In this document: positions 3,266 through 60,344 of the stretch, one piece after another
Layout of the letters: every line of letters starts with the position of its first letter
Position numbering within the stretch: the stretch's first letter is position 1
Assembly (NCBI GenBank): GCA_038045945.1
Contig: JBBSXC010000005.1
Location: forward strand, 1-60,344
From: Nanobdellota archaeon
GTDB lineage: Archaea; Nanobdellota; Nanobdellia; Pacearchaeales; GW2011-AR1
Length of the DNA stretch: 60,344 bases
Direction: 5' to 3'
The notes under the pieces: model-generated
What the model saw: the letters and a program-made list of their open reading frames with translations, nothing else
Told to the model about the DNA's origin: nothing
Database searches by the model: none
Made by a program: the position numbers and the translations under genes

Positions 3266-4372
3266 TTAAGCCTTACCGCTACCAATCATAGAGCCAGGAA
3301 CACTCCAATCATAAGTTCTAAGGCTGCCGTCACGACTCTTATCCCAAAAAGTACCATCATAACGCAGAGCTCTCGCCTTCCTCATCAATAAAACGCAAGT
3401 CTCATTAATGTCTGGTTTACGAAGACGTTCTTGTGACTCACTAATATTAGGATCATAAACTAACATGTTACTTCTTAAGAATTTAGAAAAAGCTACTAGT
3501 TCTTTAGAAGGAGTAAGAATTGGGGAAAAATCAAAAGCTGCCCGGTTCTTAAATTCTCTAATAATAAGGTGTTGAGCAGCGTAAGAAGCAGCAACGCAGT
3601 GAGCGGAAAAAGGGAGGACACGCATCAAGTTCATATCATCAAGTCTTGATTTAGTACCCCAATAAAAAAAGTCTGAGCGGTCTTCTTCACGATCATAATA
3701 AGTAGCAAGAGTCCAACCAAGAACTAAACCCTTTTTATCACTAACAGGTATGAATTCTAACTTGCCTTTGTAAAACTTATTAGTGCTTCTTGACGGCACC
3801 TCAAATTTTACTGATGCGCCATCACTATCAGCTCGCTCAGCATTATCTAGACTAACATTTATAGAAGACATGAGTAACGGCTCACCTGATTCGCTTAAAA
3901 GAGTGTGGGAATAAATTCTTGCACCATCAACAACAGTTTTTATAGGAACAACACGCGAAGGATGATCACCACCTTTTACTGGGCGATACTCATAACCAAC
4001 CCAGAATAATTCCTCTTCAGCAACATCTAATAACTTGTCAAAATCTTCTTTAATCACATCACAAGGTTTCTTAGGAGGCCTAACATCACCAGCAACGTAC
4101 AATGGTTGGTTAAGCTTAAAATAGCCAGAACGAAAATGTCTTCTTCTAGAAGCCTTGTTGGCTACACTCCCATTCCTCCCCCTACGATAAAATGCGGGGG
4201 TTAAGAAAGAATGGTTTTGTTCACAACCAATAATTAACGCCTTAGAATGATCAGTAGAATCAATAAGAGATACTAAACCACCAGGATTGTCAGCAATAAC
4301 CCTATCCAAACCCCTCAATTCAGAATCAGACCTATCAGCAAAGGCCGGTTTTCTATCACCCACAGTAATCAT
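3266..4372 (-). CDS. hypothetical protein (possible degenerate SWIM-like region)
   Basis: 368-aa ORF; VPSRS..KFY and AHCVAA segments loosely recall a SWIM context. Confidence 0.75.
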   Translation of the reverse strand: MITVGDRKPAFADRSDSELRGLDRVIADNPGGLVSLIDSTDHSKALIIGCEQNHSFLTPAFYRRGRNGSVANKASRRRHFRSGYFKLNQPLYVAGDVRPPKKPCDVIKEDFDKLLDVAEEELFWVGYEYRPVKGGDHPSRVVPIKTVVDGARIYSHTLLSESGEPLLMSSINVSLDNAERADSDGASVKFEVPSRSTNKFYKGKLEFIPVSDKKGLVLGWTLATYYDREEDRSDFFYWGTKSRLDDMNLMRVLPFSAHCVAASYAAQHLIIREFKNRAAFDFSPILTPSKELVAFSKFLRSNMLVYDPNISESQERLRKPDINETCVLLMRKARALRYDGTFWDKSRDGSLRTYDWSVPGSMIGSGKA

Positions 4373-4521
4373 TGTTAGTTATCACCATATTTATCTATAT
4401 CTATAGTAAATGATAACAATGGATAATTCATAACTATTAGTAGTATTAAAGAAGACAAAGAATGACGACAAAGCAATAAAAGAAGTGCAAGAAGTAGTAC
4501 TTTAATACAGACAGATAAAGG

Positions 4522-4529
4522 TTTAAATA
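4522..4529 (+). promoter_or_regulatory. archaeal TATA box (TTTAAATA), probable leaderless transcript
   Basis: Lies 22-29 nt upstream of ATG 4551; the same geometry recurs before many genes in the window. Confidence 0.55.
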
Positions 4530-4550
4530 AGCAAAAACAGTAAATTGTTA

Positions 4551-6398
4551 ATGGCTAACGAAGGAGCAAGCTTTGAAGACCAAGTAAAAGACAAAAAAGA
4601 TACTTATTCTAAAGAAAACGGTCAATCAGGAAATAATAACACAACAGGAATAGAAAAAGAAAAACTACCACAAGAAATGAGCGAGAAAGTTAGGAAAGAG
4701 ATGGAAAAGACGAGGCTAGAACTAGAAAAACTAAAAAAAGAGTTCGTAAAAAAGTATTCTTTCATAAGAGCAATAGGAATACTACCATCACAAGGAACAC
4801 AAAAATTTGTTGAAGAAGAATTCACGAACAAAGAGGATATTGAAAGAGTAAGCAAAATGATTAATTTAGTAGTAATAATACCAGAAGACAAATACAAAAA
4901 AGTCAAAGAAATAAGAGAAGGACTAATAAAAATTGCTGAATCACAAAAACAAAAAGTATGGATTCATATAATGTCACACGTTGACGTATTCAACTATGGC
5001 CTGGACGGAAAGTATGAATACACAGCAGACATAGGAATGAGTTACCCTCTTTACGATAAGGACTTCTTAGCAAATCTGCGCGTAGCAGAATACCACAAAC
5101 ACTTAGTATTAAGAAAATTCGAAAAATACATTGTTAGTTATGTAATAGCAGGAAGCTTCGTGCGAGGAGACGCAGTGAAAACTTCAGACGTTGACACATG
5201 CGTAATAATAGACGACACGGACGTTAAGAGAATGTCAAGACTTGAACTAAAAGATAAACTACGAGGATGGATTCACAGATACATTGCTGAAGCAGGAGAA
5301 TTAGCACAAGTAAAAAACGTTCTAAACGTACAAGTATACTTACTAACAGAATTCTGGGAAGCAGTAAAAGACGCACACCCAGTAATGTTCACGTTCATAA
5401 GGGATGGAATACCTTTGTACGATAGAGGAACATTCTTACCATGGAAGCTTCTGCTAAAAATGGGAAAACTAAAACCTTCCCCTGAAGCAATTGATATGTT
5501 CATGGCAAGCGGAGATAAACTAAACGAAGTAGTTAAAAGAAGGTTACTAGACATAGCCGTCGGAGACATTTATTGGAGTATTCTAACACCAACACAAGCA
5601 CTAATAATGCTTTACGGACAAGCACCACCAACAACCAAAGAAACACCTGGGATGCTAAAAGAAATATTTTATGACAAAGAAAAAATGTTAGAAAAAAAGT
5701 ATGTTGATTTCGTAGAAAAAATAATAAAGCTTTACAAGGATTACGAACACCAAAAAGTTAGTGAAGTATCAGGTAAAGAAGTTGACCAATTAATGGTAGA
5801 AGCAAACGCTTACCTTAAAAGACTTAAAGAATTGCGAGAACAAATAGAAAAAGGGGCTCAAAAAAAGACTTTAGCACAAGCTCACGAAGAAGTAAGTAAG
5901 ATTTTAGGGTCAATACTAGGAGAAAAACAAGAAAGCAAACTAGCATCAATGTTCGAAAAAGAACTAATAAATAAGGGATTGTTGAATCCTAGACACCTAG
6001 AAACAATTAAGAGCATTATGAAAATCAATAATAAAGATAAGAAGACTAAGTCAGAAATGAATAGGCAACAAGTAGAAGACTTAAGAAAAGACTCAAGCAC
6101 ACTAATACGCGACCTTACAGAGTTTAAACAAAGAGAGGAATTATCAAGAATCGAGAAAGGAAGATTTAGAATAAAAACAGCCAAAGGAGAAAATTACGAA
6201 TTAATATCAACTGGAGAAGCAGCATTCCTAATAAGCCAAACAGCAATTAAAAAAATAACTAATAGGGTTTACGAATCTAACGAAAAAGAATTAAGCGAAC
6301 ACTTAAGCAAAAAAGCAGCCAGTAAAGAAACAAGAATAGACCCAAAAATCTTCCACATACTAGAACTAGAACTAGGACAGTTCGAGATGATAGCTTAA
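4551..6398 (+). CDS. Pol-beta-family nucleotidyltransferase with HEPN-like helical domain (large paralog)
   Basis: AGSFVRG...SDVD..VIIDD motif, followed by the helical segment IYW....QALIM..GQAPP. Confidence 0.8.
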   Translation: MANEGASFEDQVKDKKDTYSKENGQSGNNNTTGIEKEKLPQEMSEKVRKEMEKTRLELEKLKKEFVKKYSFIRAIGILPSQGTQKFVEEEFTNKEDIERVSKMINLVVIIPEDKYKKVKEIREGLIKIAESQKQKVWIHIMSHVDVFNYGLDGKYEYTADIGMSYPLYDKDFLANLRVAEYHKHLVLRKFEKYIVSYVIAGSFVRGDAVKTSDVDTCVIIDDTDVKRMSRLELKDKLRGWIHRYIAEAGELAQVKNVLNVQVYLLTEFWEAVKDAHPVMFTFIRDGIPLYDRGTFLPWKLLLKMGKLKPSPEAIDMFMASGDKLNEVVKRRLLDIAVGDIYWSILTPTQALIMLYGQAPPTTKETPGMLKEIFYDKEKMLEKKYVDFVEKIIKLYKDYEHQKVSEVSGKEVDQLMVEANAYLKRLKELREQIEKGAQKKTLAQAHEEVSKILGSILGEKQESKLASMFEKELINKGLLNPRHLETIKSIMKINNKDKKTKSEMNRQQVEDLRKDSSTLIRDLTEFKQREELSRIEKGRFRIKTAKGENYELISTGEAAFLISQTAIKKITNRVYESNEKELSEHLSKKAASKETRIDPKIFHILELELGQFEMIA

Positions 6399-39479: not shown

Positions 39480-41864
39480 TTAAAAGGTGCTTTTGATAAA
39501 ATTTAGACTCTTTTCAAAGGGCTCTTTTATTTCTTCAATTGTAGGAAGCTTCATCTGCGTTATGTTAGGTATTTCAAGTTTTAGTAGTCTTTTCTTTGTA
39601 ACCCATCTACCATAAGAGAAACGCCAATTATGAATGTTTATTTGTGAAGCGTAATAAAGGAGCTGTCTTAAACTCATATCTTTATTTGGGATTAATACTA
39701 AAACTGCTCCGTGACTTCTGGCTACGAAAGGCATTATTTGAACACTTGCTAAACCGAAAGATGACAAAGTTATACAGGGTTTTCTATAAATTAACTCTTC
39801 TTCATCTTCATCAATATACATTTCTACTCCATTGTTCGTTGTTGTACTGGTAATAAAGGGCATTTCCCCGTTACCGTAGTCTTCAATATTTTTTGACTTA
39901 GCATTTTCAATTGTGAATAAGTCTGATAATTGCTCATTACTCTTTATAGCACAATCAGTATCAAGATTTATAGAAGCTCCTTTGAAGAAAGGATTATTTA
40001 TTAGATGATTTACTAAGTTTAGGTGAGTGTGTCGCATTTGTTGAATAATTTCTTTGTTATTGTGTTTATCCTCTTTAAGGTAGTATTCGGGAGCACACTC
40101 CAAGTCTTTGTCTTCTTCATTGTACAGTATAGGTTCTATAGAATAGAGTTTAGGAACATTTTTTTGCTGTGTTATACTCCCATTGAGAAAATCTTTAACT
40201 AAAGACTTAATTGTTTCAATGTTACCATTTGACTTCTTTCTCATTACTCCTTTCTTCTTGATATAACCGTCTTCTAACCTTCCCCAAAAGACATCTTTCT
40301 TAAAATTATGCGGAACACCCTTTTGGATTATCACAGCCGAAGTAACAACACCTACAGGATAAAATAAATCTTCTGGAAGTTTTATTACAGCTTTTAGTGT
40401 ATTGTGCTTTAACATTTCTTTTCGCCATTCTCTTACCTTCATTCCTTTAAACATTATTGGGCTTGGAATAATAACAAATAGTAATCCACCGTCTTCCATT
40501 TGTGATAATCCGTAATCTACAAACTTGTATTCTTTTTCCTCTCCCTTCTTTAGGGCAAACGGCGGATTCATCAGAACCTTTGTTATAACTGGGTTCTTGT
40601 TTTCAGTCCCCTCTCTTTTAGCTTCCTTTCCAGTTTCAAATGAATCTTTAGTAATCTTGTTAATATTTTTTTGGAAACAGTTACCACTCATCATATTGTT
40701 TCTACCATCTCCCCTAAAAATCATATTAACCAGAGCTAGAGCAACAACCTCATCGTCTTGTTCTATCCCGAATAGGTTATAATTCTTGAATTTGTCTATT
40801 TGTTTAGCATTTGAATTTTTCTTAATATAATCAAAGGCAGAAACTAAAAATCCCCCTGTTCCACAAGCAGGGTCTAGGATATAGTCGCTATTCTTAACAT
40901 CTAAAACTTCTACTCCAAACTTTGTTATGTGTCTTGGTGTTAAGACTATGCCAATTTCCTTAGCACCATTTCCATACTTCAAAAACTTTTCATAGAACTT
41001 ACCCAGAATATCATTTCCAGAAGCCATGGCGTTCTTAATATCTAAAGTTTGTAATTCTTTTAATGTGTCTATTACGGCTTTGCGATATTTTATGTGATTT
41101 TCTGGTATCGGCGGAACTTCAAGTTTGATATAGTCATAAAATCCTTCTTTTTTTACTTCTCTTAGTTTCTTTTTAATCAGAGTATTAACATTTTCTACTA
41201 AAGTTGTTGTGTCTTTTTCTCTTAAGTCTATTTCAGAATCAATGGAAAGAGATAATACTAATCCTGCTAAAAATCTTGCTCTTTTATTTTTATTTACTCC
41301 AGCATTATGTAATATCTCGTTTATATTCTCGGCAGAACCCAGATATTTTTCTTCTGGAAAATCTGGAAACTCTTGCCAGTTTGGGGTTTTATTACTTAAA
41401 AGATAGTTAGCTTGTTCTTTAGATAAGAGTGTATCTTTAGGTTTTCCGTTAAACAAAATCTTCTCCCATTTTCCCTTATGTAAGTATTCATTTACTATAG
41501 TATAACCATCTGTATCATTACCTGCAATTCCAGAAGCGATAATACACTTAAGATTAGAATTATCATTAATCCGCCTGGCATAATAATTTTTTGCCTCTTC
41601 TAATGCTCTGTCAATTTCTTTCTTTTCCCTTTTGCTCTCTATTACCCAAACTTCTATTTCATTTAATTTTATTACAGCTTCGGGTCTTTTCGTTCCAAAC
41701 GCTTTCTTAATATCATCATTAGCTAAGCACTCATTTTGCTTGTAGACTTCTCCTTCTGGAACTCTTGCAGGATTTTTAACAATCCACCCTAACTTTTCTA
41801 ATTCTTCTTTAATGTAAGAATAAGCATCCACTTCACTATTAGTAGGATTATTTGAGTGAGCCAT
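39480..41864 (-). CDS. single-chain Type IIG-like restriction-modification enzyme (nuclease + m6A MTase + TRD)
   Basis: RPE...VIESK nuclease-like motif, LTPRHI, LDPACGTGGFL, NPPF and a C-terminal HsdS-like TRD (PFITSTTTNNGV, FSYGR). An alternative start exists at 41957. Confidence 0.85.
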   Translation of the reverse strand: MAHSNNPTNSEVDAYSYIKEELEKLGWIVKNPARVPEGEVYKQNECLANDDIKKAFGTKRPEAVIKLNEIEVWVIESKREKKEIDRALEEAKNYYARRINDNSNLKCIIASGIAGNDTDGYTIVNEYLHKGKWEKILFNGKPKDTLLSKEQANYLLSNKTPNWQEFPDFPEEKYLGSAENINEILHNAGVNKNKRARFLAGLVLSLSIDSEIDLREKDTTTLVENVNTLIKKKLREVKKEGFYDYIKLEVPPIPENHIKYRKAVIDTLKELQTLDIKNAMASGNDILGKFYEKFLKYGNGAKEIGIVLTPRHITKFGVEVLDVKNSDYILDPACGTGGFLVSAFDYIKKNSNAKQIDKFKNYNLFGIEQDDEVVALALVNMIFRGDGRNNMMSGNCFQKNINKITKDSFETGKEAKREGTENKNPVITKVLMNPPFALKKGEEKEYKFVDYGLSQMEDGGLLFVIIPSPIMFKGMKVREWRKEMLKHNTLKAVIKLPEDLFYPVGVVTSAVIIQKGVPHNFKKDVFWGRLEDGYIKKKGVMRKKSNGNIETIKSLVKDFLNGSITQQKNVPKLYSIEPILYNEEDKDLECAPEYYLKEDKHNNKEIIQQMRHTHLNLVNHLINNPFFKGASINLDTDCAIKSNEQLSDLFTIENAKSKNIEDYGNGEMPFITSTTTNNGVEMYIDEDEEELIYRKPCITLSSFGLASVQIMPFVARSHGAVLVLIPNKDMSLRQLLYYASQINIHNWRFSYGRWVTKKRLLKLEIPNITQMKLPTIEEIKEPFEKSLNFIKSTF

Positions 41865-41953
41865 CTTTATATTTATACCATTAAGCCTATTTAAATAGTT
41901 TTTCTTTTCTCTTATCTCGGTTTTACTTAAATCTTTATTGATAATAGAATCTT

Positions 41954-43174
41954 TCATCCTTTTTCCTCCAATACAAATTCTCCTTTTATCCCTAGTTCGC
42001 TTATTTCTTGTATTACGCAAACTATGTTATGACAAATAAATTTTAGTAATAGTTCGTTAGTTTGTGCTTCTTTCGTTTTGCTTCTAAGACCGTCTCTGAA
42101 CTTTGTTTTAATCATGTGAAAAACTGTTTCTACATTACTTCTTTTGTGGTAGTGTTCTAAGAACTCTTCTTGTTTGTAGATGAAATAGTGGTACATTCTT
42201 TTCCAAATGTCTGAGCCTCTTGCTTTTGCTATTGCGTTTCTTTTGAAAGGAATGTAGGGGACAGCTCCCACATCTTCTATGGTTTGTAAGTTCTTACGAG
42301 AACTATAAGCACGGTCTCCACTAACCTCGCCCACCTTAAATGTTTTAGCTGTCTCCTCAACAAGGTGAGGCAGTGAAGGACTATCATTCGTGTTACCATC
42401 AGTAATTTCAACACTTGTAACAATGTTGGTTTTAACACCTGTCATGATGTGAGCTTTAATCCAAGTTTGATACTTAATCTCCTTACCATGCTTGTAACTA
42501 AAGTATCTAGCAAAACGTGAAGTGGAAAAGCCCGAGCTGTCCACAGCAAAGCTACTTTCAACTTCTTTCAAGGGACTAGAACTCATTCTAATTAAAGATT
42601 GAAGAATATCAGTTATCTCTGGTTTCTGCATGAAGTGACCAATAGAAGCATAGCAAGGAACAGAATCAATTAATCTCATTTCCTTAGCAATCTTTAAGTC
42701 AGACATGAAACGCCTTAATGAGAATCCACTGTACACCTTTAATGCTGAAGCAAATATCATATCCGCAAAGGGAAGTTTAGGCCTTCCGAACTCATACGTT
42801 GGTTGTTCTATGTAGTCGCATAAATCCTTTAGGAGCTTCAAGAAGACAAGTTTTTCGTTAGTTTGAGCATTATCATAAGCTTTCCATTCTTGTGTATAAC
42901 TAACCTTAACGCCCTTAGTTTCCGTGACGTTTCCTCTATCATCAATCTGTTTCTTAATGTAAAACTCAACAGCATAGATGTGCTTACACTTACTCTTTCT
43001 TAATTCACAATCGGCACAGTTACATGATGGCTGGTGTCCATTGTATCTTACTAAGTAAGACTTACTGCTTGTCTCTGAAGGAACTCTCCAACCAAAAGGC
43101 GTCTTGACTATCTTGAAGCGTTTAACGATGTCCTTTCCTCGTTCTTCTCTTGTTGCTAATTTACTTTGTGTCAT
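41954..43174 (-). CDS. DDE transposase (IS5/IS4-like DDE_Tnp_1 fold) with N-terminal SWIM zinc finger
   Basis: CNCADC....KCKH SWIM finger; catalytic AVDSSG, GDRAY and Y..RSNVETVF..K residues intact. Confidence 0.92.
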   Translation of the reverse strand: MTQSKLATREERGKDIVKRFKIVKTPFGWRVPSETSSKSYLVRYNGHQPSCNCADCELRKSKCKHIYAVEFYIKKQIDDRGNVTETKGVKVSYTQEWKAYDNAQTNEKLVFLKLLKDLCDYIEQPTYEFGRPKLPFADMIFASALKVYSGFSLRRFMSDLKIAKEMRLIDSVPCYASIGHFMQKPEITDILQSLIRMSSSPLKEVESSFAVDSSGFSTSRFARYFSYKHGKEIKYQTWIKAHIMTGVKTNIVTSVEITDGNTNDSPSLPHLVEETAKTFKVGEVSGDRAYSSRKNLQTIEDVGAVPYIPFKRNAIAKARGSDIWKRMYHYFIYKQEEFLEHYHKRSNVETVFHMIKTKFRDGLRSKTKEAQTNELLLKFICHNIVCVIQEISELGIKGEFVLEEKG

Positions 43175-55590: not shown

Positions 55591-55603
55591 TTATCGCAAA
55601 AGC

Positions 55604-55611
55604 TTTAAATA
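55604..55611 (+). promoter_or_regulatory. TATA box of rps2
   Basis: CGCAAAAGC-TTTAAATA (BRE plus TATA) lies 23-30 nt before ATG 55634. Confidence 0.6.
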
Positions 55612-55633
55612 CGCACTTTTTCTGTAGTCTTTT

Positions 55634-56581
55634 ATGGCTAAACAAGCAAGTAATAAGTCTGATGAAGAATCAGTCAAAGAGATAGCAACAGAAGTAAAAA
55701 AAGAAGCAACAAAGAAAAGCAAGGTTAGTAAGTCTAAATCTGAAGAAAAAAGTGATGAAGAATCAGTAATGGTAATTGCTGAAGAGGTTAAGAAAGAGGC
55801 AACAGAGGACGGAGTTGTTGAAACAAAGGTTAAGAAACAAATAAAAGTAAAACTTGAAGATGTTGTACCAAAAACAGACAAGGACGCTAACACACTAATA
55901 CCTCTAAACGACTATATTAGAAGTGGAACTTATATCGGAACAAAAGTAATAACACCACACATGAGACCTTTCATCTACAGAAGAAGAAATGACGGAATAG
56001 CAATAATTAACACCAACATAATTGACGAAAAACTTAAAGAAGCAGCAAGATTCTTAGGAGACTTCAACCCAGAAAACATAATAATTGTTTGTAAAAGAGA
56101 AAGCGGATGGAGAGCAGTAAAACTATTCTCAGAACTAACAGGAATAAGAGTATTCACAAAAAAGTATCCAGCTGGAATAATAACTAACACAGCACTACCA
56201 GACTTTTTCGAAACAGAACTAGTAGTAATATGCGACCCATGGATTGACAAAAACGCACTAAGCGACGCACTAAAAATGAAGAAGAAAGTATTAGGATTAT
56301 GCGACACAAACAACTTCTCATTCGGAGTGGACAAAGTAGTACCTTGCAACAACAAAAGTAACAAGTCATTAGGAGTAATATTCTACATACTAGCAAGAGA
56401 ATACATGAAAATTCAAAGAATTAACAAACCTCTACCACCAATGAAAGACTTCATAGGAGAGGAACTCGAAGACTTCATAAAAGAGAAAAAGATAGACAAA
56501 GAAAAGAAAGAAGAATTAGAAGAAGCAAAAAGCAAAGTAGAAAAACTACTTAGCTTCAATGATGACGAAGAAGAAAACTAA
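55634..56581 (+). CDS. rps2: 30S ribosomal protein uS2 with long charged extensions
   Basis: LIPL.DY..SG.YIGTK....M.PFIY, K.Y.AG.ITN, DP..D.NA and LCDTNN..V.PCNNK...SLG. Confidence 0.93.
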   Translation: MAKQASNKSDEESVKEIATEVKKEATKKSKVSKSKSEEKSDEESVMVIAEEVKKEATEDGVVETKVKKQIKVKLEDVVPKTDKDANTLIPLNDYIRSGTYIGTKVITPHMRPFIYRRRNDGIAIINTNIIDEKLKEAARFLGDFNPENIIIVCKRESGWRAVKLFSELTGIRVFTKKYPAGIITNTALPDFFETELVVICDPWIDKNALSDALKMKKKVLGLCDTNNFSFGVDKVVPCNNKSNKSLGVIFYILAREYMKIQRINKPLPPMKDFIGEELEDFIKEKKIDKEKKEELEEAKSKVEKLLSFNDDEEEN

Positions 56582-56604
56582 GAAGAAGTGATAGGACGAT
56601 TTTT

Positions 56605-56910
56605 ATGAGTAAAGCAGATTATCAACGTGATGAAAATTCTTGCCCAATATATCGATTCTGTAACAGTAATTTAAGAGATCATGGTTTTGAAACTCATAGA
56701 GATGTCTTATTAGGGTCAAACGGAATTAAAAGTCATCACTATTCCCAAGTTAGAATAGAGTCATGTTTAAGTCAATGCGGGTCATCAAGAGACTCGGGAG
56801 ACAGAGGAATGTGCGAAAGAAGACCTTTTGTTGAAGTAAACGGAGAAATTATTAATGCAGAAAATACTATCAGGCTAACCCAGAAGCTAGTTAATGATAG
56901 ATTAACTTAA
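56605..56910 (+). CDS. hypothetical Cys-rich protein
   Basis: CPIY.FC ... CL.QC ... C. Confidence 0.55.
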   Translation: MSKADYQRDENSCPIYRFCNSNLRDHGFETHRDVLLGSNGIKSHHYSQVRIESCLSQCGSSRDSGDRGMCERRPFVEVNGEIINAENTIRLTQKLVNDRLT

Positions 56911-57302
56911 ATTCTTTTAACTAAATTATCAACTTTTGTAATAATTTCTTTAATTATTGGTGATAAGTCTTGACCTCTTTCACCATCATGAACTTCTAAA
57001 CGAATAAGCTTCTTACCATGATTTATTGCCTGATTAAAAGTAGGAGTAGGAACATTATCAGCAACATTAACTATTATGTCAACCCAACGAAAAAGTTCCT
57101 CACTGAGAGGACTAGTAGAAACTTTAAGCTTCAAACCAAACTTCTCTGCAAACTTTTTCAAGCTAGAATCAACAGGATCACCCTTAATTAAACCAGCAGA
57201 CCTAACATGAATAGACTTATCACTATTAATCTTATTAAAATAAGCCTGCGCAACTTTACTCCTAAAACGATTATACTTACAAACAAAAAGAACGTTACCC
57301 AT
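56907..57302 (-). CDS. low-molecular-weight protein tyrosine phosphatase/ArsC-fold protein
   Basis: VLFVCKYNRFRS (CX5R) and SAG. Confidence 0.8.
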   Translation of the reverse strand: MGNVLFVCKYNRFRSKVAQAYFNKINSDKSIHVRSAGLIKGDPVDSSLKKFAEKFGLKLKVSTSPLSEELFRWVDIIVNVADNVPTPTFNQAINHGKKLIRLEVHDGERGQDLSPIIKEIITKVDNLVKRI

Positions 57303-57627
57303 AAAGAATTATCCCGATAAGTACAGTTATGTTAGAGGCCATGGCCAAAATATAAGCCACGATTAAAGGCTTCTCCTTATGAATAAAACCATAAATAAGC
57401 CAAGGAATATTAAACAAACAATAACCAATCCAAGAAATGATAGATAAACCAGAAGCGTTCTGCAAAGAATAAATATGAAATATTTGAGGAATAGCAATTA
57501 GAGGATGAATAATTGCAATGATTATCATAAACTTATCAAACAAACGAACAGCATTACTCTCCTTAGGCAAATTATTCCTCTTTCTTTTTGAAATATGATG
57601 AAGAACACCCCCTTGATTATTAGGCAT
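57295..57627 (-). CDS. SemiSWEET/PQ-loop transporter
   Basis: IPQI..I...QNASGLS..SW, W..YG..HKEKP and three TMs. Confidence 0.8.
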   Translation of the reverse strand: MPNNQGGVLHHISKRKRNNLPKESNAVRLFDKFMIIIAIIHPLIAIPQIFHIYSLQNASGLSIISWIGYCLFNIPWLIYGFIHKEKPLIVAYILAMASNITVLIGIILYG

Positions 57628-57702
57628 GATTAATCAATAGAAAAAATTCTTTATATAGCTTATGATAAGAAATTTTAATAACCCATAAGAAGCCCTATAA
57701 CA

Positions 57703-58569
57703 ATGAGCAATAAAAGAATCGACAATACCATAATGAATTATGGTGAAATTGCAAAAAAGTATCCTCTTTTATCTAAAGAGGACTTTAATGACCATCACTC
57801 AAGGATGAAAAAAGGTGATAGGCACTGCCCAGAAAAAGAATTACTTCTCCTTTCAAACTTGAGACTTGTGATGAAGATTGCTAACGGATATCATCACTTT
57901 AACCCCTCAGGAGATATTAATGAAATAATACAAAACGGACTCATAGGTTTAGATACCGGAATTGAAAGATATGACCCATCAAGAGGTTTTCAACCAAGCA
58001 CTTATCTATCATGGTGGATAAAAAGATCTATAATAAAAACATTCAAAGATGAAAGTAGAACTATAAGAACACCGTTACATGTTTACGAAAAATTATCTAA
58101 GTATAAGAAATTTTTGGAAGATTTTACGCAAAAAAATAATAGGGATCCAAGAAGGGAAGAAATTGAGGAAGCTGATAAAGAAGATGAGGGAGTATACTTA
58201 GGGTATATAGCATACCAAACAAGCCACGTCATCTCTATTCATAGTACAAAAGAAAGAAATGGTGATGAAAGCGGATTTGAAGACGAATTAAGATGGGATG
58301 GTCCAGGGCCTGTTGAGAGAATTATTGAAGGGAAAGAAAGCATCACTTTAGAATACCTTACTTCTGTTCTTCCACCAATCGAAAGGTTTGTAATAACTCA
58401 AAGATTCACCACTGACAAAACTTTAGAAGAAGTAGCTGCATCATTATATGAATCAAACAGTTATATACTTAACAGAGAAAAGCCATTATCAAGAGAGAGA
58501 ATAAGACAAATAGAAAAAAGGGCTTTAAAAATAATGAGTGAAAAATTAGAAACAAAAGTAGAAGTATAA
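57703..58569 (+). CDS. bacterial-type sigma-70 family RNA polymerase sigma factor homolog
   Basis: Region 1.2 YPLLSKE, 2.1 SNLRLVMKIA, 2.2 EIIQNGLIGL, 2.3-2.4 YDPSRGFQPSTYLSWWI, 3.0 SRTIRTPLHV and 4.2 TLEEVA...SRERIRQIEKRAL. Confidence 0.88.
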   Translation: MSNKRIDNTIMNYGEIAKKYPLLSKEDFNDHHSRMKKGDRHCPEKELLLLSNLRLVMKIANGYHHFNPSGDINEIIQNGLIGLDTGIERYDPSRGFQPSTYLSWWIKRSIIKTFKDESRTIRTPLHVYEKLSKYKKFLEDFTQKNNRDPRREEIEEADKEDEGVYLGYIAYQTSHVISIHSTKERNGDESGFEDELRWDGPGPVERIIEGKESITLEYLTSVLPPIERFVITQRFTTDKTLEEVAASLYESNSYILNREKPLSRERIRQIEKRALKIMSEKLETKVEV

Positions 58570-58578
58570 ACTTATTAT

Positions 58579-58911
58579 TTACCCAATCCTCTTACCATTT
58601 TCAACTTTTCTTTGCGGCTCAAGCAAAACTACTTCTTTGTTATCTCCGACAACACCCATAACTAAACACTCCGATAAAAAATTAGCGATTTGTTTAGGAG
58701 GAAAATTAACAACAGCAACGACTTGTTTACCAACCAAGTCATTTTTGGAGTAAATTTTTGTTATTTGAGCAGAAGACTTCATAACACCCAAGTCTTTGCC
58801 AAAATCAATAGTTAATTGGTAAGCAGGATTAACAGCTTTAGGAAAATCATTAACCTCTAAAATAGTGCCGACACGAATATCAACTTTAGTAAAATCATCC
58901 CAGGAAATCAT
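58579..58911 (-). CDS. csaA: CsaA tRNA-binding/export chaperone (OB fold)
   Basis: ISWDDFTKVDIRVGTI, IDFG, SSAQIT and VVNFPPKQIANFLSECLV.G. Confidence 0.9.
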   Translation of the reverse strand: MISWDDFTKVDIRVGTILEVNDFPKAVNPAYQLTIDFGKDLGVMKSSAQITKIYSKNDLVGKQVVAVVNFPPKQIANFLSECLVMGVVGDNKEVVLLEPQRKVENGKRIG

Positions 58912-58988
58912 AAAAAGAAAAAGCAGAATTGAGAATATAAAGATTATGTACACAAATTATTAAATACTAACTAAGAGAAGAACTAATT

Positions 58989-59342
58989 ATGAATAAGAAA
59001 ATAGCTTCTGGAATAATATCACTTGCAGCATTAGCAGCTTCTACAAGAGGCGTTTATGACATAACAGAAGTAGGGAAAATTTATGGGGCTAACCCAGAGA
59101 TAGGAGAATTATACACTTTAAGAGAAAAGGCCGATGAACTAAAGGGTTATAAAATTCTTGATGAAGCAAAAGAAAGAGTTAACCTGAGAATAAATGAACT
59201 AGAAGCAATACCAGGTTTATTAGAAAATGAGAAGGAATGGGAGGATGCAACTCATAGAGCACTAAGTTTTTTGGCGGGCGGAATATTATTAACAGCTTTC
59301 GGAGTCGCCACATGGAAATCTTCACCAAGAATACAAGTCTAG
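58989..59342 (+). CDS. hypothetical membrane protein
   Basis: Hydrophobic segments at both termini. Confidence 0.6.
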   Translation: MNKKIASGIISLAALAASTRGVYDITEVGKIYGANPEIGELYTLREKADELKGYKILDEAKERVNLRINELEAIPGLLENEKEWEDATHRALSFLAGGILLTAFGVATWKSSPRIQV

Positions 59343-59490
59343 ATAAAGGATTAGCAAGAGTGTGCCAATAACGCGATGAAGGCAGAGTAAGAACTTCTCA
59401 AATAAAAAATCTTGAAGAAATTTTTGTCTATTACCCCTAAAAAGTAACTGTAGAAAAATCGCATTTTATTATCAGAAAAACGACGAAACG

Positions 59491-59498
59491 TTTAAATA
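59491..59498 (+). promoter_or_regulatory. putative rRNA promoter TATA box
   Basis: CGAAACG-TTTAAATA (BRE plus TATA) at the head of the ~370-nt leader before the 16S gene. Confidence 0.5.
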
Positions 59499-59865
59499 GT
59501 CATTTTTGTCTGACTATTCATTAAAATGTTAACTGGAATGAGTGCCTTAACAACTGTATATCAGCTAAGGTATGATGTAGAGTAGTCATTCTAGTTAATA
59601 CAACAATTTTCTGATACAAAAATTATTTATTAATGATTATTTATCGATGATATGAGGTAAAAAAGAAATTTTTATTTTTTGTAAGTGACGAAATATAATT
59701 CTATTAACTTTAATGTTGTGTAATGTAGTACCGTTAAATTTCCAAATTTAAACGAGTATCGGAGAACGAGCTTTGCATTCACTCGAAAGAATAATTTTCG
59801 AGATTTTCAATAATAATTTAGTAGTGGATTTTAAACAACTCCAAGCAAATGAATCTGTGAATTAA

Positions 59866-60344
<479 letters not shown>

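Follow-up and report, generated by a model that had tools for sequence, protein, structure and literature searches.

Described sigma systems and the locus under study

Sigma factors on the one side and TBP, TFB and TFE on the other are the textbook markers of bacterial and of archaeal/eukaryotic transcription initiation. Sigma-70 genes in DPANN archaea, especially Woesearchaeota, have been published (Castelle et al. 2021, Front Microbiol, PMC8204110); in the accessible part of that account mis-binning is excluded, no anti-sigma factors are found and the mechanism is left open. A literature search found no other account of DPANN sigma genes and no experimental study. The accessible part of a preprint that treats RNA polymerase (bioRxiv 10.64898/2026.05.13.725050) has no occurrence of the word "sigma", and rpoS-like genes in DPANN viruses are on record in the accessible part of a further paper (PMC12647753). 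The present analysis concerns a sigma-70 family gene at positions 57703–58569 of a stretch of 60,344 nucleotides, referred to as the window, from a groundwater archaeon of the phylum Nanobdellota (GenBank assembly GCA_038045945.1, contig JBBSXC010000005.1). Sigma factors in archaea being in print already, the gene is an unusually divergent further member of a described kind and not a discovery.

The closest described system is the DPANN sigma-70 set itself (fam00359; Castelle et al. 2021, PMC8204110, accessible part). As in that set, an archaeal contig encodes a bacterial-type sigma, and the small DPANN genome to which it belongs has TBP, TFB and TFE as well. The set was limited to archaeal contigs with mis-binning excluded; here, the contig carries an archaeal 16S rRNA gene, uS2 and gltX_arch, and two per-run assemblies span the locus. 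An anti-sigma partner is absent from the accessible account, and no HATPase_c_2 or STAS match was found in the present genome, which is 93% complete, other anti-sigma families not having been searched. The window sigma differs from the set in belonging to a rare, fast-evolving sublineage with one ortholog found, and in having an F427P substitution, an insert in a helix-turn-helix (HTH) and a replaced region 2.2.

Among bacterial proteins, the group 2 sigmas (RpoS and the cyanobacterial SigA-like proteins) have the same size of ~290–330 aa, the same span from region 1.2 to region 4.2 without region 1.1, and the same contact residues for the −10 and −35 elements. In contrast to them, the window sigma belongs to a host without a bacterial core RNA polymerase (RNAP), its region 2.2 is replaced and its family scores lie far below the cut-offs. 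With the phage sigmas (phrog_351) it shares the character of a short, divergent sigma-70 family protein, but its neighbourhood is housekeeping, its chromosomal position is conserved and it is no closer to viral than to bacterial sigmas. MzaA, the ~726-aa sigma of the MZA anti-phage system, aligns only over profile positions 450–702 of 726, and its score of 128.4 bits falls well short of the cut-off of 800 bits.

Identity, archaeal setting and predicted promoter of the sigma gene

The features of the sigma gene and its upstream region are as follows.

57664–57681, + strand: predicted archaeal-type promoter with a TFB recognition element (BRE) and TATA box, −39 to −22 from the ATG, from sequence and weight matrix
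57703–58569, + strand: sigma-70 family gene, regions 1.2 to 4.2 without region 1.1, 288 aa, ATG start
57850–58062, + strand: sigma region 2 (residues 50–120), Pfam Sigma70_r2 (PF04542), E 1.3e-14
58078–58317, + strand: equivalent of regions 3.0 to 3.2 (residues ~126–205), from alignments to SigA and RpoS chains and to E. coli RpoD
58366–58536, + strand: sigma region 4 (residues 222–278), Pfam Sigma70_r4, E 1.5e-10, plus residue mapping
58438–58473, + strand: insert of ~12 residues (~246–257) between the two HTH helices of region 4.2, from alignment gaps

The open reading frame (ORF) at 57703–58569 is an intact and genuine bacterial-type sigma-70 family gene of the group 1/2-like kind. Pfam region 2 reaches 54.2 bits over residues 50–120, where the cut-off is 24, and region 4 (PF04545) scores 40.8 bits against 24.1 over residues 222–259. 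The Pfam models for regions 3 and 1.2 gave no match at E ≤ 0.01 in the 288-aa protein, and region 1.1 was matched by neither Pfam nor NCBIfam, the protein beginning at region 1.2. Two NCBIfam models align end to end, namely rpoS_proteo (residues 7–285 on profile positions 12–277 of 285, E 1.8e-35) and the RpoD/SigA subfamily model (E 1.9e-39). The superfamily model TIGR02937 is the only one above its cut-off (71.9 against 42.9 bits), every equivalog and subfamily score lying far below. Thus, the RpoS equivalog TIGR02394 reaches 122.8 of the required 378.7 bits, and the protein falls outside the primary, group 1 RpoD/SigA sigmas both by lacking region 1.1 and by its RpoD_Cterm score (117.8 against 354 bits).

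The top matches among solved structures (HMMER) were cyanobacterial SigA (E 8e-29) and RpoS (E 5e-27). An ESM Atlas model of the 288-aa protein (predicted local distance difference test, pLDDT = 0.74) superposes over residues 2–288 on group-2-like clusters with template modelling (TM) scores of 0.74–0.77. An exhaustive protein search returned 52,353 relatives at E ≤ 0.001; with these numbers, and with E values from 1e-14 to 1e-39, the family match is not due to chance. The preliminary description of this DNA, made from the letters alone, had claimed a near-complete sigma factor gene in an archaeal chromosome. The two Pfam matches, the end-to-end alignments and the archaeal 16S, uS2 and basal factors all bear this out.

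The genome is 847 kb in length, in 7 contigs. It encodes one TBP, one TFB and TFE-alpha, and its only match to a largest RNAP subunit is of the Rpb1 type and archaeal. The genes that flank the sigma gene in the window are listed below.

55634–56581, + strand: ribosomal protein uS2, archaeal/eukaryotic type, TIGR01012 E 2.7e-51, 173.9 bits (cut-off 211.5), and Pfam Ribosomal_S2
56907–57302, − strand: low-molecular-weight phosphotyrosine phosphatase-like protein, Pfam LMWPc E 2.7e-10, syntenic in L243 (see below)
57295–57627, − strand: PQ-loop membrane protein, divergent from the sigma gene, Pfam PQ-loop E 5.5e-05, syntenic in L243
58579–58953, − strand: tRNA-binding-domain protein, convergent with the sigma gene, Pfam tRNA_bind E 1.1e-15
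59866–60344, + strand: archaeal 16S rRNA, 5' part, truncated where the window ends, Rfam RF01959, 420 bits, E 5.8e-121

The uS2 gene ends 1.12 kb upstream of the sigma gene (at 56581) and the 16S rRNA gene begins 1.30 kb downstream (at 59866), in agreement with the distances of 1.1 and 1.3 kb first given. The bacterial rpsB model matches uS2 with an E value of 7.8e-11 only, against 2.7e-51 for the archaeal model, and gltX_arch, the archaeal glutamyl-tRNA synthetase, scores above its cut-off on the same contig. The G+C content is even along the window (0.32–0.38). The stretch was found in four DNA runs from two groundwater samples of one study. Two Logan per-run contigs (X1 and X2, 13,891 nt each, from the two samples) span 55600–59919 with 0 differences and run from uS2 via the sigma gene into the 16S gene. 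Since these contigs join the three genes, a joining artefact of the original assembler is excluded. The assembly may itself derive from these runs, and the contigs accordingly count as a renewed assembly of similar data and not as an independent sample. The assembly chimera considered in the preliminary description was not encountered.

The single close relative among the 52,353 proteins (P0121/P0270, E 1e-50, 39–42% identical) is a syntenic ortholog. On L243, the metagenome contig of P0270, a P-type ATPase, enolase, uS2, phosphatase (− strand), PQ-loop protein (− strand), sigma (+ strand) and archaeal 16S follow one another in an order identical to that of the window. The contigs differ in a 117-aa membrane protein, which lies on the opposite side of the sigma gene, and in the tRNA-binding-domain gene, which was not seen beside the sigma gene in L243. 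The 5' parts of the 16S genes are 96.1% identical (442/460 positions). At the protein level, the identities are 82% for uS2, 74% for the ATPase, 67% for the PQ-loop protein, 63% for enolase, 55% for the phosphatase, 41% for sigma and 29% for the 117-aa membrane protein. As to other relatives, the PQ-loop neighbour was not found in a same-genus genome that is 79% complete (G001), and among five genomes (G001 and four of the same family) it was found elsewhere in two.

Both sigma genes are intact, encoding 288 aa in the window and 287 aa in L243. The rate of nonsynonymous substitution (dN) is 0.54 and that of synonymous substitution (dS) is at least 1.42; as dS is saturated or undefined for all seven gene pairs, only the bound dN 0.54 < dS ≥ 1.42 can be used. 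The sigma gene is under selection, though of a looser or more changeable kind than most of its neighbours. The preliminary description had held that an unexpressed lone copy with dN/dS near 1 would undo its reading: the copy is not a lone one, and for the ratio the bound just given is what was obtained.

That the gene might be a functionless relic, or an artefact of assembly or binning, could be argued from its fast evolution and from the fact that its closest relative in 61 related genomes is just 34% identical. Against this stand a frame kept open in two lineages, a dN well under dS, the retention of functional residues, a strong promoter signal typical of the genome, the two per-run assemblies that are identical to the window from uS2 across sigma to 16S, and the uniform G+C content. 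A relic or artefact is already largely refuted and deserves next to no credence. The sigma gene is real, native and maintained in the archaeal chromosome.

Upstream of the gene, an A-rich BRE-like stretch (57664–57672) is followed by a TATA box, TTTTAATAA (57673–57681). The archaeal TATA-like box noted at first, TTTAATAA, was located at 57674–57681, and GATAAGAAATTTTAATAA lies upstream of the ATG exactly at the position that is typical of the genome. That position was derived from a crude call of 963 ORFs with ATG starts only, of which the 961 with at least 60 nt upstream were profiled. The profile is A-rich from −39 to −32, with TTT at −29 to −27 and AAAA at −26 to −23, a sharp and very regular signal at a fixed distance from the start, and no Shine-Dalgarno signal was present in it. 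Archaeal BRE/TATA promoters with leaderless mRNAs give such a fixed-distance pattern, and the profile suggests that most mRNAs of the genome are leaderless. With a position weight matrix derived from all genes, the sigma gene scores 4.70, which is the 86th percentile among 960 genes and is reached by just 0.06% of 5000 random genome positions. Of 45 sigma genes from related genomes that were scored with this matrix, 17 exceeded 2.0 (the 95th percentile of random positions), against 47% of the genome's own genes; these 17 include several long, bacterial-looking sigmas. The ortholog has a TATA-like TTTAAGAA at −29 to −22.

Kept promoter contacts, replaced core contacts and the proposed role

E. 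coli K-12 RpoD served as the reference for single residues (BLASTP, 31% identity over 264 columns, offset of 329 in region 2). The melting residues are kept, Y101 corresponding to Y430 and W104/W105 to W433/W434, and region 2 has P98 for F427, R108 for Q437 and I111 for T440. The alignment thus confirms the tyrosine, the tryptophan dyad and the changes at F427 and Q437 that had been read from the letters. H126 and E129 correspond to H455 and E458 in region 3.0, and an acidic stretch aligns with the region 3.2 linker. In the recognition helix of region 4.2 (SRERIRQIE, residues 263–271), R584, E585, R586, R588 and Q589 are identical to E. coli. The HTH insert, originally put at ~10 aa and measured here as ~12, is a gap in E. 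coli RpoD and in the solved SigA and RpoS chains. Shorter inserts occur at the same site in the ortholog P0270, which also shares F427P, and in a same-genus homolog (L004).

A set of 19 positions of E. coli sigma-70 was taken by us to contact promoter DNA. Eleven are identical in the window sigma (R423, Y430, W433, W434, H455, E458, R584, E585, R586, R588 and Q589) and five more have conservative changes, at an overall identity of 31%. A different picture is seen in region 2.2, at positions that presumably face the clamp helices of bacterial β'. These lie in sigma region 2 as N73, E74, Q77, N78 and L80, and most are replaced (L402N, D403E, E407N, N409L and, further on, M413D), with Q406 kept. 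When 34 bacterial sigmas were compared, four of five near-invariant positions proved to be replaced here (L402N, D403E, E407N and N409L); D403 is D in 34/34, E407 is E in 34/34 and N409 is N in 31/34. The combination of kept DNA-contact residues and replaced core-contact residues is the most informative result on the role of the protein.

One role put forward in the preliminary description was that of an effector aimed at the RNAP of a bacterial host or neighbour, the archaeon being presumed to be an episymbiont. A complete sigma in a genome that has one Rpb1-type match and no bacterial core polymerase would suit such a factor. However, the positions that are D, E and N in 34/34, 34/34 and 31/34 bacterial sigmas are E, N and L here, and substitutions at the D403, E407 and N409 positions weaken core binding. 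Furthermore, the amino terminus (MSNKRIDNTIMNYGEIAKKY...) has no hydrophobic signal-like stretch and no secretion or injection genes adjoin the sigma gene. The effector is accordingly disfavoured, and we regard it as highly improbable.

Of the roles considered, a DNA-reading one inside the archaeon, most likely with the protein docked on the clamp of the archaeal RNAP, is tentatively preferred. According to this proposal, a bacterial-type sigma gene would have been acquired horizontally in the past and would since have settled in the chromosome of a DPANN archaeon. Its transcription is probably the work of the archaeal machinery, which would start from the gene's own BRE/TATA promoter and yield a leaderless mRNA. 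The protein would act inside the archaeon on a small set of targets, region 4.2 recognising a −35-like duplex and region 2 capturing a −10-like element. In what is the most conjectural step, region 2 would dock on the clamp coiled-coil of archaeal Rpo1, and the sigma could then work beside TBP, TFB and TFE as an accessory factor for initiation, or its modulation, at particular promoters. The complete layout of regions 2, 3 and 4, retained beyond the HTH alone, counts in favour of this role.

The clamp coiled-coil of Rpo1 is the structural counterpart of the sigma site on β' and is also the site of TFE and Spt5. TFB and TFE have no sequence relationship to sigma; if the proposal is true, they would be functional analogues, with the coiled-coil site common to sigma and TFE and with promoter recognition or opening aided. 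Because both TFB and TFE are present in the genome, sigma would be an addition and not a replacement. The more far-reaching form of the proposal, in which sigma is a true initiation or promoter-specificity factor on the archaeal Pol II-like RNAP and region 2.2 has been remodelled to fit the Rpo1 coiled-coil, is judged unlikely.

A complex prediction with Rpo1 1–340 and sigma 1–130 gave weak support for docking. Its score was 0.34 (runs 0.07, 0.40 and 0.34), compared to 0.00 for the best of three controls, with at least 67% contact agreement among the runs and partner pLDDT of at least 71. In a calibration, the mark was passed by 58/80 solved complexes and by 2/110 mismatched pairs; scores of 0.60 or under included 7 of the 80 solved complexes and both passing mismatches. 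A pass of this kind is wrong more often than right, except for contacts that were probable from the outset, and it could also stem from memorised sigma-β' complexes of known structure.

Besides this low score, several observations weigh against docking on the archaeal polymerase. The replacement of region 2.2 is equally compatible with a loss of RNAP binding. The Rpo1 coiled-coil aligns with E. coli β' 233–373 without a gap and at 37% identity, yet β' R275, E295 and A302, which we take to be needed for sigma-70 binding, have become A226, L246 and H253. With both faces of the bacterial interface changed, the contact may have been re-fitted or, equally, lost. The coiled-coil is invariant in 19 aligned relatives, irrespective of whether a sigma was found in them, and for this reason there is no sign of co-adaptation between Rpo1 and sigma. 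The dN of the sigma gene is 1.4- to 4-fold higher than that of five of its six neighbours (0.54 against 0.13–0.37). The four runs found with the stretch are all DNA, with no RNA run among them, which bears neither way on expression.

The promoters of the genome weigh in the same direction, especially with respect to a classical sigma role, as the genome-wide signal is purely archaeal. Sigma-70-type promoters were sought in 528 intergenic regions (90,573 nt, crude ORF call), allowing up to one mismatch in the −35, a spacer of 16–18 and up to one mismatch in the −10. They are not enriched, with 27 matches against 28.1 ± 5.6 in 30 shuffles; with a perfect −35 the counts were 1 against 1.3 and 4 against 3.8. 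TTGACA alone occurs 33 times in intergenic DNA against 41.4 ± 6.4 in shuffles. A small regulon, or a changed −10/−12 specificity (Q437R, T440I), would escape such a scan.

Much of the same evidence agrees with a stand-alone DNA-binding regulator, in which the HTH of region 4.2, perhaps together with region 2, would act on operators as a repressor or activator without RNAP contact. All five −35-reading residues (R584, E585, R586, R588 and Q589) are identical, and the window sigma lacks region 1.1, which presumably masks DNA binding in free sigma-70. In addition, the core-binding positions of region 2.2 are replaced, the sigma-binding residues assumed for β' are not conserved in the archaeal clamp and the promoters of the genome are purely archaeal. 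Left without explanation are the kept melting residues Y430, W433 and W434 and the full sigma 2-3-4 architecture. The weak support for clamp docking also speaks against a stand-alone regulator, as does the lack of enrichment of TTGACA-type sites in intergenic DNA. The repurposed DNA-binding regulator of the preliminary description is plausible; in this strict form, without RNAP contact, it comes second to clamp docking and appears somewhat unlikely.

Origin and spread of sigma genes in the phylum

The closest bacterial and viral sequences come from many phyla and are ~25–39% identical in their best segments. Among genome contigs, 567 of 600 stretches were confirmed and the best 80 kept, and among viral contigs 543 of 588 were confirmed; no relative among the best 80 of 567 bacterial stretches or among the viral ones exceeded 39% best-segment identity. 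A first tree was built from 44 of 46 DPANN ORFs (two under 200 aa were dropped), 34 of the 80 bacterial loci and 16 of 150 unlabelled hits. For a second, seven long-branch rows were dropped, 20 bacterial rows kept and 24 of 80 viral sequences added (≤ 340 aa, non-identical).

Quick trees placed the window sigma in a loose cluster rich in DPANN sequences. Forcing the window sigma and P0270 into one clade with RpoS gave a tree whose log-likelihood exceeded that of the quick free tree by 56 units, and since the constrained search beat the free one, quick-tree placements are not to be trusted. A clade with gammaproteobacterial RpoS was not rejected (approximately unbiased test, p 0.9). In the careful tree, whose bootstrap correlation of 0.942 had not settled, the backbone is a polytomy. 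Thus the comparison with bacterial and phage sigmas suggested in the preliminary description yielded one supported pair, the window sigma with P0270 (100/99), and no resolved backbone.

A viral or conflict-linked gene, meaning either a sigma of viral origin or a rapidly changing regulator in defence or counter-defence, would account for the fast evolution (41% identity compared to 55–82% for five of six neighbours) and for sigma genes being patchy and often multi-copy in the phylum. The neighbours of the protein in a protein language model are mostly viral short-sigma clusters, phrog_351 is matched with E 6.3e-40, the sigma part of MzaA is matched as well, and rpoS-like genes occur in DPANN viruses (PMC12647753, accessible part). 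On the other hand, the flanks are housekeeping genes without phage or defence genes, and a related genome keeps the gene at the same position. With PADLOC, no other defence protein was found among the four neighbours tested, the sigma part of MzaA alone being matched; with the NCBIfam model, MzaA scores 128 bits where 800 are required. In best-segment identity (25–39%), viral contigs come no nearer to the window sigma than bacteria do, and the main viral clade is separate from it in the trees. A viral or conflict link is considered very unlikely.

One phage-like viral contig (L187) encodes a 304-aa sigma (4268–5182) together with a serine recombinase, a Sak annealing protein, a dCTP deaminase and a phage lysozyme. 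This sigma paired on long branches with the same-genus homolog L004 in a quick tree, and the pair was lost in the careful tree.

A Pfam region 2 match is present in 167 of 401 sampled genomes of the phylum, all at least 90% complete, in 145 of 281 when counted by genus and in 10 of 27 in the window's own family. Three of the 167 are unpublished (G391, G303 and G452); G391 contributes one row (L036) to the first tree and to the promoter scoring, and no conclusion rests on unpublished genomes. With the window sigma as query, 15 of 61 related genomes were matched, the best match being 34% identical and from the same genus. Multiple copies are present in many genomes, with some arranged in tandem, and many copies are long (430–740 aa) with regions 1.1, 1.2, 2, 3 and 4. 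The survey fits the account of Castelle et al. 2021 (PMC8204110), as far as its accessible part goes.

Tandem arrays of two or three sigmas are found at G255:C3:17754-20145, G211:C6:9594-11686, G041:C64 (L008/L018) and G233:C42:26959-28058. The long, primary-like sigmas (430–740 aa) include L030 (G270), L028 (G255), L035 (G453), L052 (G211) and others. L030 groups by a short branch with Desulfonauticus and with one unlabelled protein (95*), a placement that points to recent transfer or to mis-binning of its contig. L028, L035 and L052 have strong archaeal-type promoter scores of 5.4–6.0. In the 740-aa sigma L027 (G169), residues 676–718 match HTH_31/HTH_3 weakly (E ~2e-4, under the cut-offs), and the carboxy terminus is possibly a fused second DNA-binding domain.

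The genome of the window has a second sigma gene (G000:C1:108721-109524; L002 1390-2193), which encodes a 267-aa protein of the FliA/WhiG type (E 6.8e-30). It adjoins an aminoacyl-tRNA-synthetase-like gene and its upstream region has an archaeal promoter score at the 73rd percentile. As for sigma-28-type promoters, CCGATAW occurs 97 times in the genome against 89.9 expected, with only 3 bipartite matches. The Rpo1 gene, ~9 kb away (G000:C1:118834-122301, − strand), is one open frame of ~1150 residues in which A' and A'' are fused. In most archaea rpoA is split; in relatives (L136–L158), most of the best matches to Rpo1 are open frames of 1133–1203 aa.

Two further observations concern other genes of the window. 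The uS2 protein has an amino-terminal extension of ~85 residues with a high content of Lys, Glu and Ser (55634–55890), and is 315 aa long in the window and 283 aa in the syntenic ortholog. At 39480–42020 (− strand) an 846-aa protein is encoded, part of which is a DNA methyltransferase resembling MAD2, a component of methylation-associated defence (E 1e-15), and hsdM (E 3.3e-9); it is possibly a restriction-modification or defence gene.

With the phenomenon in print already, the locus is of value as a well-characterised example from which hypotheses can be drawn. It is also a good test case, given a small near-complete genome, a clear promoter signal, a syntenic ortholog and defined sets of kept and replaced residues. 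Intact sigmas with an archaeal-type promoter signal are kept in many DPANN archaea despite the presence of only an archaeal polymerase, and this raises the testable question of whether a sigma can function on a Pol II-like enzyme or next to it. If sigma does act on the archaeal RNAP, bacterial and archaeal/eukaryotic initiation would be combined in a naturally occurring hybrid, and since approximately four in ten of the Nanoarchaeota-type genomes sampled carry sigma genes, such a hybrid system could be widespread.

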